A program made the position numbers and the translations under genes. 64,000 nt of DNA from Heptranchias perlo (lineage: Eukaryota). Under the pieces are notes generated by a model. The model worked only from the letters and a program-made list of their open reading frames with translations. It had not been told where the DNA came from and searched no databases. This document shows positions 2,741 through 64,000 of the stretch, piece by piece. Position 1 is the stretch's first letter, and every line of letters starts with the position of its first letter. The stretch lies in the NCBI RefSeq assembly GCF_035084215.1, contig NC_090340.1:36890001-36954000 (forward strand). Direction: 5' to 3'.

Positions 2741-3465
2741 AGTTGGATTTTTCTGTGAGCGGCGACCGTTCATTAGACTTATGCTTGCCCACAGACTTTT
2801 CATGAGTTTTGCATGGCAAGTTCCTCTGATCAGGCACTCAATCCAGAGCGGCGCCCTCTACAGGGCACCAAGGACCTATGTGAACCGGGCAAGCAGCTGT
2901 GTATCCCCTTAACCAATCAGATTGAAGCCACACAGAGACTGAACCAGGAAATGTAAGTTGGAATAGTGAATTCAAAGTCAAATCAGGTACAGAAAGCGAA
3001 AAAATAGAGGGTAAGAATTATTGAATTGAGACAGAGCTAAAAGAGACAGAAAGGAAAAGTTATTAAAAATTTTAAGTGTCCAACAATAATTAATAATTGA
3101 AGGAATGAGACTCCACACTTGTAAAAGTTAATTTTCAGGGACAGAGAGGTTGTTTGGCAGTCATCAAGACTTACCATGCCATTAAGAGGGTGATTAGACT
3201 TAAAATTACTTGATGTAATTTCTGACGAGATTAGTTCGTATCCATCAGGTCAGTGCAGGAACTTCACACCGTTCCATTCATTTGAATGGAGAGCCAGCCG
3301 GTGAGATGCTGTTCTCGCTGAGCTTACGGAGAAGGGTCGCATGTGGTACAGCAACTTTAACGTTTAACTGCACATGTGCGGTCGCCAGAAGTTGCTGCAC
3401 CATTTCCACAGAAATAATGGTGAGCCCTATAAGCCTTGTCGATATTTTCACAGGAAAATCCAGCC
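2741..3465. mobile_element. Non-autonomous TIR DNA transposon (Harbinger-like MITE)
   Basis: Imperfect TIRs agttggatttttctgtg / cacaggaaaatccagcc; body clearly homologous to 11135-12111. Confidence 0.7.
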
Positions 3466-47500: not shown

Positions 47501-50500
47501 AATGACAACTGATTTAGAGAAATATATTGTAATTCATTGTCAACCTGCCTATTTGATTGCTGTGCTTTTTTTTACAAATTTACAGGCAGACGCAGATGAT
47601 CCAGACCAAACTGCTGAAGGCAGACTTCCATGGAGCCATTGTGACAGGTATACATATAGATAATTTGTTTTCTAATAAGCAAAGTATGCAGAATCTGTAA
47701 CAAGGAAGATAAACCCTAAGGTGTAGAACATACAGCTATTTTTATATATAGAATCATAGAATCAAATCAGAAGGTAAGATCAAGTATATAGTATTCAACC
47801 CATCTAACTTATACAAACAAAATTACACTGAAAATGCTGGAAATCTAACACAAAAAACAGAATGCTTAAAACGCACTTTCCAGTAGTACCTGAATTAAGA
47901 GCATTTTTGTTTTTTGTTTCAGTCCACTTAACTTGACATTTAGGGCACCACCCAAACCACATCCTCCTTCCAGCTGAGTTTGTGACTTTCTACTCTGTTG
48001 AGTTAGGAGTCTGAATTTTTGAAAGCCATTTCCACCTCCGTAACATTGCCTGTCTCCGCACATGCCCCAGCTAATCTGCTGCTGAAACCCTCATCCATGC
48101 CTTTGTTACCTCTAGACTTGACTATTCCAATGCTCTCCAGGCTGGCCTCCCATTTTCCACCCTCTATAAACTTGAGCTCATCCAAAACTCTGCTGCCCGA
48201 CTCCTAACTCGCACGAAGTCTCGTTCCCTCATCATCCCTGCGCTCGCTGACCTACATTGGCTCCCAGTCCGGCAACGCCTCGATTTTAACATTCTCATCC
48301 TTGTTTTCAAATCCTTCCATAGCCTCGCCCTTTCCTATCTTTGTAAGCTCCTCCAGCCCTAAACCCTCGGAGATCTCTGCACTCCTCCAATTCTTGCCTC
48401 TCGAGCATCCCCGATTTTAATCACTCCACCATTGGCAGCCGTGCTTTCAGCTGCGTAGGCCTTAACCTCTGGAATTCCCTCCCTAAGCCTCTCTACCTCT
48501 CCTCCTTTAAGACGCTCCTTAAAACCTACCTCCTCGTCTGACCTAATATCTCCTTATGTGGCTCGGTGTCGAGTTTTGTTTGAAAAGGCTCCTGTGAAGC
48601 ATCTTGGGACATTTTACTATGTTAAAGGCGCTATATAAATGCTAGTTGTTGTTGCTTCAACTGAGCCTGCATCCCTTAAGTGTGGAGGTATTATGTGTAG
48701 CTGTGGGGGGATTCTGCTGTTACAGCCCTATAATTGTTGTGTATCGTTTAAAGTTATATAAATGGTATGTGAAGTGTTAAGAGTTTGTATTTATTGTCCT
48801 AGCAGCAAATACAACTCTGTCTCCAAGGGTCTGATCTTTCAGTTTCCCTAGATAAACAATGAGATCCAGCAGGTTTCTGAAATGTAAAATTAATTTGTAT
48901 TTGAAAAGTGTATGTGTGCAAAAAATTATTCTAACCCATCAATCTATAAACACAAAAAAAACTTTAGGTGAAATGTTTTGGTGAGATCCACATTTTTATA
49001 ATTTGTTTGCATTACAGTGGTGAAGTCCAAATGTCCCTCCTATGTAGGGGTCACAGGAATTATTCTGCAGGAAATGAAACATATATTCAAGATTATCACT
49101 CTGGAAAATAAGCTTAAAGGTATTGTTACAAATTTCAGGTCTACTCTAGGGTTTAGCATCACTGGTCTCCCCCATAGGTGGATCCCAGATCCTTTACAAT
49201 CAGGAGTTTATTTTTACTGTCCAGTATCTAGTCATATGATAGCATGACTAGGGGTCATGACAATAAAGCCCTGTAGCAAAAGAACTGGATAAACTCTCAC
49301 GTTTAATTTTCCAATCTTCTAAAATAAGGCTTTTCTAGTCAATTATCTCTCTTGATTCTGACCGATTCTGAGCTTAAAATGAGAGAGCTTTTTCTTGATA
49401 GGTCAGGCTGCTTTACAAAACTAACTGGCCTCGTGTTTCTTTGTTCTCATTTCATAACTGAACAGGAAAGCAGCAGTTTGACCTCTGACCCTCTCCCTGT
49501 CTTAGGGTTGGTCAATTAAACCAGCTACCACACCCCTGGGTGGAGGTGCCTTAGTAACTATCTCCTACTATTTCCCAAATGAATAAGACAATCGCAGGGA
49601 TGTATTAACAACCTTTATTGTCACAGTTTGAAGTGGTATGTAAGTAGCAACAGCCCACAAACTGGAGCAAAGGGGATTTCAAGCGTTTCTGAGCAAAAGT
49701 TAACTCAAAAATAGCATTTTATTGTAAATCATACGATGGTCCATCTGTGGTAAAATAGATAGATCTCAAAACATGAAAAGGTTGTACATCTTGTCCCCGT
49801 GTGGCCAGTTTAATTCTTACAGTTTGTGGTCAGTTTAACACTCTGATAGAGCTAACTAAAGAATAACTCAGCTAAAATAAAGTTCTGCTTAGCCTCTCAT
49901 ATACAGTGTCATTTTTGTTCAGTGCAATGTAAACTCCACTGTGCAGGACTAAATCCCATTTCAACTTCAATTTTTTTAGCCCATACTTTGTCAAAGTCAG
50001 TTAAATGGAGGCTATACGTGGATAAGTGGTGGATTGTGAAACATAAATTATTGTTTGGTGCTGGGGTATGCCAATTCCTCAAATTAGTGGTTTGTAATCA
50101 TTCCCAGATACCAATTTTTCGCTATTTTACATACCAGTTGTAAATGTTGTTGTTAATTCTCAAAACATTGATTCTGTGGTGGTAGTGACATTACCGGCTG
50201 TGACTATAGAACATTTTTAATTATTATTAAAACATAACTTATTTTGTAAAGCATTGAAATGCTAAAGAACTGAAAAAAGTTTTAAACTTGATTTTACACA
50301 CTAGTTCTAATCGCTTTATTTTCTCCCCTCTCCCCCCCCCCCCCCCCCCCCCCCACCCCCTGCAACCCAGTTATTCCCAAGCAAAATAGTATCTTCAGCG
50401 TGGAAGTCGATGGCTTTGTTTCCTATATCTACGGCAGCAAGTTTCAGCTGAGATCAAGTGAACGCTCTGCAAAGAAATTTAAAGGGAAAGGAAGCATAGA

Positions 50501-55580: not shown

Positions 55581-55813
55581 GTCATTCATTCTTCCTCCTC
55601 CTTCCCCTCCCCGCATTGTAAAGTTCTTTATTTAAAAGGGCACAATCTTCATGATGTGTTTGGCAAACCTTTTTTTCTCATTTGTTTACAAATGCATAAT
55701 GAAATGACATAAATCATTGTTGAAATGCATCATGTCCCAAAAGGCTTGCCATACACTTTTCATGAAGACACCGCCTCTTTTAAACGTTCTGCGATCTGTA
55801 TCTGTTGCTATTT

Positions 55814-55828
55814 GCTTTCACTTTCACT
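55814..55828 (-). promoter_or_regulatory. ISRE/IRF element upstream of the IgSF leader exon
   Basis: GCTTTCACTTTCACT reads AGTGAAAGTGAAAGC on the minus strand (tandem GAAANNGAAA IRF consensus), about 110 nt upstream of ATG 55934. Confidence 0.65.
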
Positions 55829-55933
55829 GACTTCAGTTAAGAGAGGTTGTAAAAACTGGCGAATTTGGTTACAAAACATGTACATTTTTTTTTACTTTTC
55901 ACAAATTGTTTTCAAATTAAGAGGAATGGGATA

Positions 55934-55982
55934 ATGAACTGCTTTCTAGCAGAACTGATAGTTTACATTATCTCTTCAGCAG
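55934..55982 (+). CDS. Signal-peptide (leader) exon of a B7-family-like IgSF gene
   Basis: ATG...MNCFLAELIVYIISSA+G then consensus CAG|gtaagt donor; 49 nt, phase 1, joins in frame to the V exon at 61058. Confidence 0.75.
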
Positions 55983-55988
55983 GTAAGT

Positions 55989-55998
55989 GGGGATTTCC
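55989..55998 (+). promoter_or_regulatory. NF-kB site at the start of intron 1 of the IgSF gene
   Basis: GGGGATTTCC is an exact fit to GGGRNWYYCC, directly after the splice donor. Confidence 0.55.
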
Positions 55999-56260
55999 TT
56001 GTTATGACTCTGTTGCTAATAATAAGGAAGTCAATTTTTAAAAAAATCTGAGGTCAGAAAAGGAGGTGGTGTAAAGTAGCCGTATAGACCAGGGACAACC
56101 TGGAAAGTAGAGTTGATTCCGTAGGAGGTAGAAATTTGCTCCTTTTCTTTCTCAAACAGAAAACTGTTTCCCAAATCTTTTGATGAAGGCAGCGGGGGTA
56201 GAAATTGGACCTTGTGGCCTCTGTTTTACAGGCGCAACAAGGGACAGTTTTGGGAATCAA

Positions 56261-59070
56261 CATAGAAACATAGAAAATAGGAGCAAGAGTAGGCCATTCG
56301 GCTCTTCGGGCCTGCTCTGCCATTCAAAATGATCATGGCTGATCATCTAACTCAGAACCCTGTTCCCGCTTTTTACTCATATCCCTTGATCCCTTTAGCA
56401 TTAAGAAATATATCTATCTCCTTCTTGAATACATCTAATGACTTGGCCTCCACTGCCTTCTGTGGTAGAGAATTCCAAAGGTTCACCACCCTCTGAGTGA
56501 AGAAATTTCTCCCCTTCTCGGTTCTAAATGGCATACCCCGTATCCTGAGACTGTGACCCCTGGTTCCAGACTCCACAGCCATCGGGAACATCCTCCCTGC
56601 ATCTAGTCTGTCTAGTCCTGTTAGAATTTTATATGTTTCAATGAGATCACCTCTCATTCTTCTCATCTCTAGTGAATATAGGCCTAGTCGACCCAATCTC
56701 TCCTCATACGTCAGTCCTGCCATCCCAGGAATCAATCTGGTAAACCTTCCTTGCACTCCCTCCATGGCAAGGATATCCTTCCTCAGATAAGGAGACCAAA
56801 ACTGCACACAGTACTCCAGATGTGGTTTCACCAAGGCCCCGTACAACTGCAGTAAGACATCCCTGCTCCTGTACTCAAATCCTCTTGCAATGAAGGCCAA
56901 CATACCATTTGCCTTCCTAACTGCTTACTGCACCTGAATGCTCGCTTTCAGCGACTGGTGTACAAGGACATCCAGGTCTTGTTTCACCTCCCCTTTTCCC
57001 AATCTATCACCATTCAGATAATAATCTGCCTTACAACCAAAGTGGATAACCTCACATTTATCCACGTTATACTGCATCTGCCATGTTCTTGCCCACTCAC
57101 CCAACTTGTCTAAATCATATTGGAGCATCTTTGCATCCTCCTCACAGCTCACATTTCACCCCAATTTTGTGTCGTCTGCAAACTTGGAAATGTTGCATTT
57201 AGTTCCCTCATCCAAATCATTGATATATATTGTGAATAGCTGGGGCCCAAGCACTGATCCCTGAGGTACCCCACTAGTCACTGCCTGCCACCTGGAAAAA
57301 GACCTGTTTATTCCTACTCTCTGTTTCCTGTCTGCCAACCAATTCTCTATCCATGCCAGTATATTCCCCCAAATCCCATGTGCTTTAATTTTGCACACTA
57401 ACCTCTTATGTGGGACCTTATCAAAAGCCTTCTGAAAATCCAAATACACCACATCCACTGGTTCTCCCCTATCTATTCTACTAGTTACATCCTCAAAAAA
57501 CTCCAATAGATTTGGTAAGCATGATTTCCCTTTCATAAACCCATGCTGACTTTGTCCAATCCCGTTAATGCCTTCCAAGTGTTCTGTTATCACATCTTTT
57601 ATAATAGACTCTGGCATTTTCCCTACTACTGATGTTAGGCTAACTGGTCTGTAATTCCCTGTTTTTTCTCTCCCTCCTTTTTTTAAATAGTGGGGTTACA
57701 TTTGCCACCCTCCAATCTGTAGGAACTGTTCCAGAGTCTATAGAATTTTGGAAGATGACCACCAATGCGTCCACTATTTCCAGGGCCACTTCCTTTAGTA
57801 CTCTGGGATGTAGATTATCAGGCCCTGGGGATTTGTCAGCCTTTAGCCCCATTAATTTCCCTAGCACTATTTTTTTTACTAATGCTGGTTTCCTTCAATT
57901 CCTCCCTCTCATTAGACCCTTGGTTCCCTAACATTTCTGGGAGGTTATTTGTGTCGTCCTTTGTGAAGACAGAACCAAAGTATGTGTTTAATTGTTCTGC
58001 CATTTCTTTGTTCCCCATTATAATTTCCCCCATTTCTGACTGTAAGGGACCTACATTTGTCTTCACTAATCTTTTTCTCTTGACATATTTATAGAAGCTT
58101 TTACAGTCAGTTTTTATGTTCCATGCTAGTTTACTTTCATACTCTATTTTTCTCCTCTTAATCAATCTCTTTGTCCTCCTTTGCTGAATTCTGAACTGCT
58201 CCCAATCCTCAGGCTTGCCGCTTTTTCTCGCAATTTTATATGTCTCCTCTTTGGATCAAATACTATCCCTAATTTCTTTTGTAAGCCACGGTTGAGCCAC
58301 CTTTCCTGTTTTATTTTTGCACCAGAAAGGAATGAATAATTGTTGTAATTCCTGCACACATTCTTTAAATATTAGCCATTGCCTATCCACCATCATCCCT
58401 TTTAGTAAAGTTCCCCAATCTATCATAGCCAACTCGCACCTCATACTTTCGTAATTTCCTTTATTTAGATTCAGGACCCTAGTTTCGGATTCAACGACTT
58501 CACTTTCCATCTTAATGAGGAATTCTATCATGTTATGGTCGCTCTTCCCTGAGGGACCCCGCACAACAAGATTGTTAATTAATCCTTTCTCATTGCACAA
58601 TACCCAGTCTAGGATCGCCTGTTCTCTAATTGGTTCCTCAACGTATTGGTCTAGAAAACCATCACGTACACACTCCAGGAATTCCTCCCCCACAGTATTA
58701 TTGCTAATTTGGTTTGACCAATCTATATGTAGATTAAAGTTACCCATGAGTATAGTTGTACCCTTCTTGCATGCGTCTCTAATTTCCTGATTAATGCCCT
58801 CCCCTACATCTCCACTACTGTTTGGGAGCCTGTAGACAACCCCCACCAACGTTTTCTGCCCCTTGGTGTTTCTTAGCTCCACCCATACAGATTCCACATC
58901 ATGATTTTCCGAGCCAATATCCTTCCTCACTATTGCATTGAATTCCTCCTTCACTAACAACCCTACCCAACCTCCTTTCCCTTTTTGCCTGTCCTTCCTA
59001 AATATTGAATACCCCTGGATGTTCAGTTCCCATCCTTGGTCACCCTGCAGTCATGTCTCCGTAATCGCAA
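56261..59070 (-). mobile_element. CR1 LINE (endonuclease to 3' end) in intron 1 of the IgSF gene
   Basis: ORFs 58256-58960 (VESVWVEL, SDHNMIEF), 57156-57617 (FADD) and 56373-56903; catagaaa tail. Confidence 0.96.
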
Positions 59071-59646
59071 ATAATGCCTGCATCCAAATAATTCCTGAAA
59101 GACGATTGACCCGATATTGGGTCGGGCCATATTTCAGGCGTTGAGGTCGGCTGCCCACAAGCATTGGGTTCCTTGGAGATGCAACTGAGGGCCTAACACT
59201 TGTTTCAGATTGCCTGATGGAAATTCAGCCACTTGCTCAGGTTTTCCAATCATGGATGCAGAAGCAAGAGGCTACCATTAAATAGGTAGGTTATTTTTTT
59301 TTAAGTTTGTTGTGGAGCCAGGAGGAGCATGAGTGTTCTTCCCAGCTCCACAGCACTCCCAAGGACCTCTGCTGGCCCACAATCAGTCACCTCCCCCATC
59401 CCTCAGGACTTACCTTTGGGTTGCTGCTGGCTAGGCAAGCTGCTCGACATTCATCTTTATGAAATGAGCGAGCTGCCTTTAGAGGCATGACAGGCACCCA
59501 AGTAATGTTAATGAGCCCTGAGGCCACTTTCTGTGTCACCTCAGGCCTCCCGGTTGGGGCGTGCACTCTGTGTTTGGCGCCCATTTCAGGCCGAAAACAG
59601 ACTGAATTTCCGCCTCAGTGTCCCTTAAATTTTGAATAGAAATATG

Positions 59647-60363
59647 TGCCCCGATATTAACCCCACCCCCATGAAAGAGAGGGGGGGGGGCTTAAAAAGT
59701 TAAATACGGGACCGCGAGCCCAACACGCAGTGCAGGCGCCCGTCATCTTTTTTTACAGTGGTGGAGATCAGGGCGTCCAACCTCCCCCCAGCCCCTATCT
59801 CCAACCATCAGACCATAGGTCTCTTCCCCCCTCACAATCGCGGGCCTCTTCCCCCCCCTCCTGATCGCGGGCCTCTTCCCCCCTCCTGATCGGGGGCCTC
59901 TTCGCCCCACCCACCCTCCCGATCACGGGCTTCTTCACCCCTCCCGATCTCAGGCCTCTTCCCCCCCCTCCCGATTGCGGCCTCTCCCCCCTCCCAATAA
60001 CGGGCCTCTTCCCCCCCCACCCCCGATCATGGGCCTCTTCCACTCCCCCCCCCCCCGGATCATGGGCCTCTTTCCCCCCCCCCCCCACCTCCCGATCGCC
60101 ATCCTCTTCCCCTCCCCACTCCCAATTGCAGGGTACCACCCCCAAGGGTCCCTGGCTGTCTCCTCCTGCTGCTGTTGGTTCCTCCCACCCACCGGCCAGG
60201 CTGCCGATTCGGCCGGCTGCCGAGCGGGAAATGGAGCTAAAAAATGTTAATGAGGTCCTGCCATAAAGATCAGCAGGACCTCTGCCTCCCCGGCCTAACT
60301 GGGTCCTTCGACCATTTTCAGCCTCACCCACACCCTCCCCGCCTCCCCGTGTATATCGGGGCC
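59647..60363. mobile_element. Harbinger-type MITE with a 3-bp TSD
   Basis: TIR gccccgatat / atatcggggc, flanked by ATG at 59644-59646 and 60364-60366. Confidence 0.75.
59815..60120. repeat. C-rich minisatellite, unit about 25-30 bp
   Basis: Tandem degenerate gggcctcttccccccctcccgatc units. Confidence 0.88.
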
Positions 60364-61057
60364 ATGGATTTATTTCCTTTTAGGAATAGTAATCATACTT
60401 CTTCCCTTAGTTAAATATGAACAAGAGGATATACAACCAAACAAATCAGAGGCCTCTCTGTTGTTGTATTACTGCCAAGTGTGGAATCTCTCTGTACTGT
60501 TAGGGAGATGTTTGGGTTTCTCCAGATGGGAGAAGCTGTTGACATTCCCATTCAAATGCAGAAATTGCAGTTATGCAGTACTGAGTGGCTCACCTGAATT
60601 CTGGATGTGGGATGGAACTATTATTTAAGCCCTCTCGCTCCTTCTGGCTCCACAAAAATAGAACTTGCTAGAAGTTTTGTGGCCTTTTTCTGAGCGGTGC
60701 ACGCTCCACCATTTGTACCCGAATATTACATCGGCGTCCTACAAGCAGCGTAGGGCCCAGATTTGTGTAGTAAAACAGTCTGATGTCTGTTTCCGGGGGG
60801 CAGGCTGCTTGCTCATTTACAGGCCCATCTGAATATGGCATCGGGTGGGCCTTGTGCGCCAATGGGGTGGCCAAAGTGCTCCCACAACCTCAACCACCCG
60901 CCCCCAATTTTTTCAACTCCTGGCCACAAAACAGATGTCCCTGAGTTGTATTTCTCCCCCAAGATTTACCAAACAAAGAATTAATTCCACATAAATGTTT
61001 TATTCTCCGTGTTTAGAGACTATTTTCATTTTATATGTCTCTTTTTTTTAAATTCAG

Positions 61058-61399
61058 CTGCCCTCGAGGTGGTGGTCAGCCCAGCTGTGTTCAAGGCCAC
61101 AATTGGTGAAGATGTCCTGCTCGGCTGTTCATTTTTTCACACCGTTGAGCTTGATTTGAGATACATTGTGATTGAATGGAACCACAGAGTTGGAAATGAT
61201 GAAAAAGCCATTTGTTTGTTCGACTTTGGAGACTATGAAAGCTACAGACCAGGAACAAGTCTCTTTCTAAATGAAATAATCAAGGCAAATGCTTCTTTAC
61301 TCCTAAAAAATGCTACTATTCGTGACATTGGAACATACTCCTGCACAGTTGCAATATTTTCTGACAAAGCAATGGGGAGAGTTACTCTGTCAGTAACAG
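61058..61399 (+). CDS. Ig V-set domain exon of a B7-family-like protein (NCR3LG1/B7-H6-, CD276- or HHLA2-like)
   Basis: Pyrimidine-rich ttcag acceptor and CAG|gtgagt donor, phase 1-1, 342 nt. Contains IGEDVLLGC (B-strand Cys), IEW (C-strand Trp), NASLLLKN (like the B7/butyrophilin GNASL motif) and DIGTYSC (DxGxYxC). Confidence 0.9.
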
Positions 61400-61784
61400 G
61401 TGAGTGTGGGAATAATTCCTGAAGTGTAATCCTTTAAGATCTGTATTAGGAGTTTCTTTACTGTAATCACTGGAAATGTTAATGATGCAAATAAAAATTC
61501 CAGCCGATTCTGTAAACTGTAGGAATATATTGATGAGAAAAGTACAACTATTGTCAATTGGAAATCTACTGGTGCAAAGTTTGGTGTGAAATGGCAATCA
61601 GAGAAATTGGCATCACCTATTTGGGCTAAACAAAAACAATGTGTATATGAATTTTTTGAAATCCATTCTCAAAGACAGTTTTTAATATACCCATTTGTAG
61701 GAGATGATGAGAGAAAAGCAGAACGCTCTTTATGTTACCTCACTGGTGATATTTGTGGATAGAGAAATATCCACTGTGACAGTA

Positions 61785-63985
61785 TCATAATATCATAGTA
61801 TGATACAGCGTAGAAGGAGATTATTCACCCCTTCATGCCTGTGCCTGCTCTGTGGTTGGGCTATCCAATTAGTCCCACTCCCCTGCTATTCCCCATAGCC
61901 CTGTAATTTTTTTCCTTTCAAGTATTTATCCAATTCCCTTTTGAAAGTTACTATTGAATCTGCTTCAGGCAGTGCAGATCATAACAACTTGCTGTACATG
62001 ATTTTGAACATCTCTATCAAACCTCCTCTTAACCTTCTCTGTTTAAAGGGGAACAACCCCAGCTCCTCCAGTCCCTCCACATAATTGAAGTCCCTCATTT
62101 CTGGTACCATTCTAGTAAATTTCTTCTGCATCCTCTCTGAGGCCTTGACATCCTTCCTAAAGTGTGGTGTCCAGAATTGAACACAATACTCCAGCTGAGG
62201 CCAAACCAGTGTTTTATAAAGGTTTAGCATAACTTCCTTGCTATTGCACTCTATGCCTCTATTAATAAAGCCAAGGATCTCATATGCCTTTTTAACAGCC
62301 TTCTCAACTTGTCCTGCCACCTTCAAAGATTCGTGTATGTACACCCCCAGGTCTCTCTGTTCCTGCACCCCTTTTAAAATTGTACCATTTAGTTTATAAT
62401 GCCTCTTCTCATTCTTCCTACCAAACTGTATCACTTCACACTTCTCTGCATTAAATTTCATCTGCCATGTGTCTGCCCATTTCACCAGTCTGTCTATGTC
62501 CCCCTGAAGTCTGTTACTATCCTCCACATAGTTTACTACATTTCCGAGTTTCTTGTCATCTGCAAACTTTGAAATTATACCCTGTATACCCAAGTCCAGG
62601 TCATTGATATATATCAAAACGAGCAGTGGTCCTAATACTGACCCCTGGGGAACACGACTGTATACTTCCCTCCAGTCTGAAAAACAACCGTTCACCACTA
62701 CTTTCTGCTTTCTGTCCCTTAGCCAATTTTGTATCCACGCTGCCACTGTCCCTTTAATCACATGGGCTTTAATTTTGCTAACAAGTCTACGTTGTGGTAC
62801 TTTATCAAATGCCTTTTGAAAGTCCATATACACAACATCAAACCACACTACCCTCATCAACCCTCTCTGTTACTCCATCAAAGAACTCAATCAAGTTAGT
62901 CAAACAATAATTTTCTTTTAACAAATCTGTGCTGACTTTCATTTATTACCCCATACTTTTCCAAGTGCCAATTAATTTTGTCCCAGATTATTGTCTTTAA
63001 AAGTTTCCCCACCACTACGTTAGGCTGACTGGCCTGTAATTTCCAGGTTTATCCCTCTTCCCTTTTTTAAACAGGAGTGTAACATTTGCAATCCTCCAGT
63101 CCTCTGGCACCCCCATATCTAAGGAGGATTAGAAGATTGTGGCCAGAACCTTTTCAATTTCCACCAATAATTCCCTCCGTAATCTAGGATTCATCCCATC
63201 TGGACCGGGTGACTTTTCTACTTTGAGTGCTGCCAACCTTTTAATACCTCCTCTTTATCTATTTTTATCCTATCCAGTATCTCTACTACCTCCTCTTTTA
63301 CTGTGACATTCTTCTTCTTTAGTGAAGACAGATGCAAAGTACTCATTTAGTACCTCAGCCATGCCCTCTGCCTCCACAAGAAGATCTCCTTTTTGGTTCC
63401 TAATCAGCCCCACCTTTCCTTTGATTACCCTTTTACTATTTATACTTTTGTAAAAGACTTTTGGGTTCCCTTTTATGTTACTCTCCAATCTACTCTCATA
63501 CACTCTCTTTGTCGCTCTTATTTCTTTTTCATTTGTCCTCTGTGTTTTTGTATTCAGCTTGGTTCTCTATTGAATTATGAACCTGACATTTATCATAAAC
63601 CTCCTTTCTCTGTTAATTTTAATCTCTATATCTTTAGTCATCCAGGGAGCTCCAGCATTGTATGCCTTTCTTTTCCCCCTCATGGGAATTTGTCTAGTGT
63701 ATACCCGAACTATCTCCTCCTTGAAGGCCTCTCAATGCTCATTTATTGTTTGACCTGCCAATCTTTGATTCCAATCTACCTGGGCGAGATCCCTTTTCAA
63801 CTCTCTGAAATTAGCTCCCTTCCAGTTTAGTATTTTCACATTTGATTTTTCCTTGTCCTTTTCCATAACTACTCTAAACCTAATGATATTGTGATCACTG
63901 TTTCCCAAATGCTCCCCCACTGAAACATGCTTCACTTGCCCCACCTCATTCCCCAGAACTAGATCTAGCACTGCTTCTTCGTTGG
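61785..63985 (-). mobile_element. CR1 LINE in intron 2 of the IgSF gene
   Basis: ORF 61979-62860 ([25 protein letters not shown]) and SDHNIIRF endonuclease end at ~63900. Confidence 0.95.
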
Positions 63986-64000
63986 GCTAGATCTTGGGCT

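Follow-up and report, generated by a model that had tools for sequence, protein, structure and literature searches.

The window analysed here, 64,000 nucleotides (nt) of the Heptranchias perlo genome (contig NC_090340.1, positions 36,890,001 to 36,954,000), contains next to POP4 the start of a gene that a sequence-only reading had taken for an undescribed B7-like immune ligand. The idea of a plain B7 ligand was dropped after the downstream exons had been mapped to CARD–NACHT–LRR sequence: what lies in the window is the front end of an immunoglobulin (Ig)–transmembrane (TM)–Ig–CARD–NACHT–LRR protein, with 11 further coding exons beyond it. The whole gene, referred to here as receptor-NLR, has 13 exons and extends past the 3' end of the window, and its product of 1317 amino acids (aa) carries, in order, a leader, an Ig-V domain, an Ig-C1 domain, a hydrophobic segment, a second C1-type Ig domain (C1b), a CARD, a NACHT domain and leucine-rich repeats (LRRs). 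We consider this architecture itself close to certain. As a gene it is not new, being already modelled in the databases.

Mapping of the database protein P0014 onto the 200 kb downstream gave, for the first gene copy, a single solution of 13 GT-AG exons running from 55934 to 92846 on the plus strand. Their translation equals P0014 exactly, with all joins in frame and no stop after the TM exon. Coordinates past 64000 are continued from the window (contig C18 position minus 36890000, the window being G000:C18:36890001-36954000). Exon 1 (55934-55982; 49 nt, phase 1, canonical donor GTAAGT) encodes the leader, a predicted signal peptide, and exon 2 (61058-61399; 342 nt, phase 1, canonical splice sites with a T tract before the acceptor and donor GTGAGT) encodes an Ig-V domain of the B7H6 lineage, recognised by Pfam as V-set (E=1e-7); both stand where the sequence-only reading had put them, with the translations it had given. 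Intron 2 starts at 61400 and reaches the window end at 64000. The C-domain and TM exons that the same reading had advised looking for downstream follow as exon 3 (Ig-C1, 69028-69357, from the P0014 map) and exon 4 (TM predicted by hydropathy, 71707-71820). Exon 5 (72401-72841) encodes, by fold and alignment, the post-membrane C1-type Ig domain, which has an insertion and lacks the second Cys; exon 6 (76886-77323) the CARD; exon 7 (79158-80889) the NACHT-WH-HD2 region (Pfam NACHT, E=5e-33); and exons 8-13 (84489-92846) the LRRs (Pfam LRR_6). Pfam also reports C1-set and CARD in the product. Introns 1-6 are all in phase 1, and the NLR half consists of one large NACHT exon plus 84-nt LRR exons, the exon pattern of NOD genes.

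Hydropathy profiles of 13 proteins all showed a TM-like peak following C1, and 12 also had a leader peak; N-glycosylation sequons are present in V and C1. The leader–V–C1–predicted TM plan fits a B7 type I membrane protein with a distal IgV and a proximal IgC domain; given its predicted signal peptide and TM segment, the product would not be a soluble cytosolic protein as classical NLRs are. Long interspersed nuclear element (LINE) fragments, which we take to be CR1-type, lie at window positions 56300-59100 in intron 1 and 61900-64000 in intron 2; intron 1 holds endonuclease and reverse transcriptase matches, similar frames occur in intron 2, and about 61% of intron 1 is repeat, in keeping with its earlier description as repeat-filled.

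Transcripts and gene copies

Splicing was followed in contigs from sequencing runs that we guess to be RNA, where GT..AG joints skipping introns exactly show splicing. The Ig and NLR halves are spliced into one message. Run X1 gave a 1746-nt contig that aligns with the V exon, and the contig of that same length and depth (1746 nt) covers TM, C1b and CARD with GT..AG joints and a further 30 nt of NACHT; the gap in it between V and TM has the size of the C1 exon. Run X2, from the same sample, shows the same pattern. In a second organism and a second study, run X5 yielded two contigs, the first spanning V, TM and C1b and the second CARD–NACHT, and run X6 one contig over C1b–CARD–NACHT; the CARD–NACHT bridge of this second organism has at least 255 nt on each side.

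The joint between leader and V exon (55982 to 61058) was not among the 15 joints listed of about 694. Contigs do run 50-137 nt past the V exon onto sequence that is not intron, and the same leader–V junction is present in the gene model in the database proteins P0014 and P0001. Because of the gene model, the conservation of the leader in orthologues and these contig extensions, we infer the joint.

A head-to-tail duplicate of 36.9 kb, 99.5% identical, lies at G000:C18:36994413-37031247 (window-continued 104413-141247). It carries exons 3-13, lacks the leader and V exons, and is the source of the models P0012 and P0013; it may be a recent real duplication or a haplotype artefact. Variants of both gene copies occur in contigs. 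Some contigs pass from intron 6 to the NACHT exon (L039:6766-7785), with the listed differences matching the duplicate copy, and may represent a retained intron or an internal start giving a NACHT-LRR-only message. Three orthologue gene models, P0002, P0035 and P0028, are in-frame isoforms: in two species the CARD exon is skipped, in one species C1 and TM are.

Spread and kinship of the two halves

A search for longer proteins returned 11 matches, all from sharks or rays and 1194-1346 aa long, each with V-set, C1-set, NACHT and LRR; ten of the 11 also contain a CARD family. Four of these proteins were rescanned with Pfam, and NCBIfam was uninformative. Counting cluster members and a second search, the same fusion is found in 17 named elasmobranch species, sharks and batoids alike. 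One of these proteins is the nurse shark GenBank entry QTT61908.1, named B7H6; other database names are NLRC3-like, NOD1-like, uncharacterised and even PLEKHF1. These names are misleading. No bony-vertebrate or chimaera orthologue was present among the 120 listed of 1132 NACHT matches, nor among 20 ectodomain or 11 V matches, in searches limited by length and word, and Ig and NACHT occurred together in none of 112 other proteins retrieved. The earlier suggestion of a lineage-specific gene thus agrees with the searches made, which found it in elasmobranchs only. Mean identity across species is 79% for V, 76% for CARD and 87% for the LRRs, which together with HD2 (87-88% for the two) are the most conserved part; the V domain of the orthologues holds long invariant stretches. 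It is as conserved as the CARD, and a stable binding partner is therefore suggested. The V domain also has an invariant third Cys (protein position 69, 15 of 15 orthologues), which could form an inter-chain bond.

The best solved matches of the V exon are CD276, VTCN1 and NCR3LG1, with phmmer ranking CD276 and VTCN1 above NCR3LG1, and the C1 domain matches NCR3LG1. Within the genome, the top three V relatives, and five of the top eight, belong to one cluster of five B7H6-like genes beside KCNJ11 on contig C12 (G000:C12:29060000-29412000). KCNJ11 is about 77 kb away from this cluster and MYOD1 1.2 Mb away, an order that we take to be that of the human NCR3LG1 neighbourhood. The human gene is at 11p15.1 according to the part of PMC6514059 consulted. 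The single cluster member tested had NCR3LG1 as its best match. All five genes have V and C1 exons and a candidate TM exon; two have five C1 exons after the TM, which are predicted to form cytoplasmic Ig tails, and a third has two more distant ones, and neither CARD nor NACHT was found in 400 kb at the cluster. The first post-TM C1 of the two genes with five such exons shares with exon 5 its long insertion and the loss of the second Cys. Phe405 of exon 5 is present in 15 of 15 aligned proteins, and exon 5 refolded alone gave a C1-type Ig (pLDDT 88) whose top VIA row was the B7-H6 C domain (Z 12.8, rmsd 1.8, 96 aligned), tied with MHC II and SIRP rows.

In a V tree of 26 sequences and 112 columns, built from non-human sequences after the frog V domains had been dropped for low score, the receptor-NLR clade and the five C12 genes are sister groups (UFBoot 100). 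The V domain aligns near-ungapped to that of human B7-H6 and keeps the FG-x-x-E-x-x-RPG stretch and Lys130. It belongs by sequence to the B7H6/NCR3LG1 family in the wide sense, which bears out and narrows the B7-family assignment made before. PMC3135353, in the part consulted, lists 11 NKp30 contact residues of human B7-H6 and attributes 44% of the contacts to Thr127 and Pro128. Three of the 11 are kept in receptor-NLR (Phe82, Gly83 and Lys130) and Thr127 and Pro128 are replaced, the FG loop reading F-S-D-K as opposed to T-P-x-K in four of the five C12 genes. The gene is flanked on C18 by POP4 upstream (last coding exons 49011-50474, plus strand) and PLEKHF1 downstream, away from the KCNJ11-side cluster, so that the proposed relocation stands. 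Because of this position, the three of 11 contacts kept and the retention of T-P-x-K in four of the five C12 genes, receptor-NLR is a relocated B7H6 paralogue. As a B7H6/NCR3LG1 orthologue it was rejected, lying off the KCNJ11/MYOD1 locus and having lost Thr127 and Pro128. The NCR3LG1 position is held by the C12 cluster instead. A C2H2 zinc-finger-like frame (L028, window-continued 154778-155938, minus strand) precedes PLEKHF1, and transposase-like frames, presumably Harbinger-type, follow it (L030-L031, window-continued 183398-184607).

By its domains the inner half is an NLR, with an intact NACHT, C-terminal LRRs and a death-fold effector domain before the NACHT. In each of the 15 aligned proteins the Walker A (GKS) and Walker B (DGLDE) motifs, the sensor-1 Arg and the winged-helix His are unchanged. 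NACHT identity is 75-88% among elasmobranch orthologues; it does not exceed 35% for the remaining 106 of the 120 listed matches (of 1132), nor 39% for the genome's other loci, where 117 of 315 candidates were scored. A FastTree phylogeny of 52 NACHT regions (40 chosen proteins and 12 genomic loci, midpoint root, NOD1 and NOD2 absent) placed receptor-NLR in a long-stem clade of its own (support 1.00), weakly beside a group with an expanded NLRP3-like shark family (0.84). Outside this tree, phmmer scored the NACHT higher against NLRP3 (144 bits) than against NOD2 (112), and Foldseek put NOD2 first. AlphaFold modelled CARD, NACHT and LRR confidently, with NOD2 and NLRP3 as the best folds; the 1162-aa model is unreliable over the Ig/TM part. 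The best solved match of the CARD is the caspase-1 inhibitor ICEBERG. NLRC3 orthology was rejected, since lungfish NLRC3 (P0145) joins another shark locus, L090, in the tree (support 1.00). A divergent CARD–NACHT–LRR gene at G000:C31:30704091-30714635 gave the best genomic CARD match, yet its NACHT scores 59 bits, and it was set aside as the CARD donor. Over 100 NACHT exons of the expanded NLRP3-like family are carried by small contigs (C1317, C1338, C1349, C1370, C1445 and others).

Upstream of the leader, a tandem IRF element occupies 55814-55828 on the minus strand, 106-120 bp before the ATG. Its strict IRF-E, GAAAGTGAAAGC (minus strand, 55814-55825, 109-120 bp before the ATG), is the sole strict GAAASYGAAASY match in the 627 kb scanned. 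Leader candidates, chosen by hydrophobicity and a CAG/GTAA splice site, were found for four of the five C12 genes and not for gene V1; three have GAAA-NN-GAAA 86-119 bp upstream, against a background of 2% per 130 bp, and the fourth has it with one mismatch. A promoter blastn against the C12 cluster returned short chance matches only. Because IRF-type sites recur before four paralogue leader candidates, the element looks inherited and is probably genuine. Of the compact IRF plus NF-kB module proposed earlier, this is the part that survives. The kB consensus (55989-55998, plus strand, +7 of intron 1) has 58 matches in the same 627 kb, about 3% per 300 bp, and the ETS core (56025-56031, plus strand) 186, neither being above chance alone; these common motifs were discarded as regulatory evidence. 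A two-codon upstream open reading frame, ATG GGA TAA, lies at 55926-55934, its stop overlapping the main ATG. An IRF-like motif, GAAAGCGAAA, also occurs at 2992-3001, without an assigned gene.

Proposed mechanism and its alternatives

We give about an even chance to the proposal that receptor-NLR acts at the surface as an interferon-inducible receptor whose CARD passes a signal inward once the protein is clustered. The gene would have arisen from a relocated copy of a V-C1-TM-(C1)n gene that came to lie beside POP4 and in which phase-1 exon joining put an NLR in place of the remaining cytoplasmic C1 exons. With type I topology, V and C1 would face outside and C1b, CARD, NACHT and LRR inside. 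A conserved partner, which is probably not canonical NKp30, would bind the V domain and bring the tails together, which may release LRR autoinhibition and permit nucleotide exchange and ATP-dependent NACHT oligomerisation, and the gathered CARDs would in turn engage a partner with a CARD, either RIPK2-type (for NF-kB) or an inflammatory caspase. Going by established NLR behaviour, clustering should favour nucleotide exchange, oligomerisation and CARD recruitment.

Several points weigh against this proposal. The membrane topology is a hydropathy prediction; three of 11 NKp30-contact residues are kept; no single partner class stands out for the CARD, its matches being ICEBERG, BIRC2, NOD1 and RIPK2; and gene models without the CARD exist in two species and one without C1 and TM in another. 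The CARD–NACHT bridge in the first organism is 30 nt, one below the 31-nt rule of the tool used. The LRR is the most conserved part, which also fits the sensing of a cytosolic ligand. This last point favours a minority possibility, that receptor-NLR is a membrane-tethered sensor or guard whose B7H6-like part is merely an address or bait. Its LRR/NACHT might sense a cytosolic product at the membrane or a viral or protease attack on B7H6-like proteins, whose shedding or lysosomal routing would free or activate the NLR half. Loss of the main NKp30 contacts and an IRF site suited to an antiviral role agree with it, and human B7-H6 is described, in the part of PMC6514059 consulted, as subject to metalloprotease shedding and as a target of herpesvirus proteins. 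Under viral pressure a bait should evolve quickly, yet V is 79% identical with long invariant stretches, and no cleavage motif was identified.

The database name NLRC3-like, the ICEBERG match and the CARD-less models could also be read as those of an NLRC3-like damper or scaffold of NF-kB/interferon signalling at the membrane, induced as negative feedback. We think this unlikely, the NACHT not being grouped with NLRC3, the shark NLRC3 candidate lying on another contig and all activation motifs being intact. Less probable still is that receptor-NLR is simply shark B7H6 and binds NKp30, the NLR being no more than a lineage-specific tail; the name of QTT61908.1 and the near-ungapped V alignment would have it so. 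The syntenic B7H6 genes, however, are those of the C12 cluster, and it is there, in four of the five, that T-P-x-K is found. An annotation or assembly artefact, a B7-like gene and an NLR merged by prediction or read-through, is extremely improbable: the near-identical tandem duplicate means that local assembly may be imperfect, and contigs do enter the NACHT exon from intron 6, but the open, in-frame exon series, spliced contigs in two studies and the same fusion in 17 species all stand against it.

If receptor-NLR does signal from the surface when clustered, cell-surface contact would likely switch on inflammatory signalling directly through the fused NLR. It would connect signals of B7-type cell contact with NLR signalling in the most ancient lineage that possesses adaptive immunity, and would provide a natural, ligand-triggerable NLR for studying activation. 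The finding would also correct which shark genes are taken for the NKp30 ligands. Taken in full, the larger picture remains tentative and somewhat doubtful: an undescribed jawed-vertebrate receptor class, in which an elasmobranch-wide B7-family surface protein with its own NLR engine turns contact with lymphocytes or other cells into NF-kB- or inflammasome-type output in the ligand-bearing cell, the shark 'B7H6' being a relocated paralogue and the true B7H6 genes an unstudied cluster with cytoplasmic Ig tails.

Comparison with known systems

Vertebrate NLRs are treated as cytosolic. A description of this fusion was not found in the literature consulted, which included PMC4067322, PMC10751288, PMC12227049 and PMC12272517; there is no mention of an Ig–NLR in the parts examined of the whale shark NLR paper (PMC8455134), and Kinlein 2021, Flajnik 2012 and Ohta & Flajnik 2015 may hold one. 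Because the full-length nurse shark sequence was deposited as B7H6, it is about evenly balanced whether its domains have already been noted in print.

With the B7H6/NCR3LG1 family receptor-NLR shares the leader–V–C1–TM layout, V kinship and the C1 match to NCR3LG1, and with the C12 cluster the post-membrane C1 domain and an IRF-type site before the leader; the frog proteins P0036 and P0037 have a similar V-C1-TM-(C1)n plan. Unlike the B7H6 family, its tail is CARD–NACHT–LRR and not further C1 domains, it lies off the KCNJ11/MYOD1 locus, and Thr127/Pro128 are lost. NLRC-type NLRs (NOD1, NOD2 and NLRC3) have the same CARD–NACHT–LRR order and intact motifs, with NOD2 as best fold, but in receptor-NLR a predicted signal peptide, Ig domains and a membrane segment precede these, and its NACHT is at most 39% identical to the others seen.

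Outside vertebrates, the combination of Ig, TM and NACHT recalls sea-cucumber AjNLRC4 and AjNLR-new and the echinoderm Ig–NACHT clusters, which are the nearest whole-protein Atlas clusters to receptor-NLR (0.92). AjNLRC4 is described as having extracellular Ig and intracellular NACHT (PMC13133943, in part); unlike receptor-NLR, AjNLRC4 and AjNLR-new are invertebrate proteins that drive phagocytosis and are presented, in the portions consulted, without CARD or LRR. Compared by architecture alone, this likeness is probably convergent, because the parts of the shark protein belong to families of jawed vertebrates (C1-set, B7H6). Anthozoan transmembrane NLRs share NACHT–LRR and a membrane anchor; they differ in having 3-5 N-terminal TM helices and, in the sections seen, no Ig ectodomain is described, membrane NLRs being called an anthozoan novelty there (PMC3879445, PMC5094078). 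The shark fusion was probably built independently, from vertebrate parts, and Ig–TM–NACHT proteins in sea cucumbers and TM-NLRs in anthozoans are its precedents.

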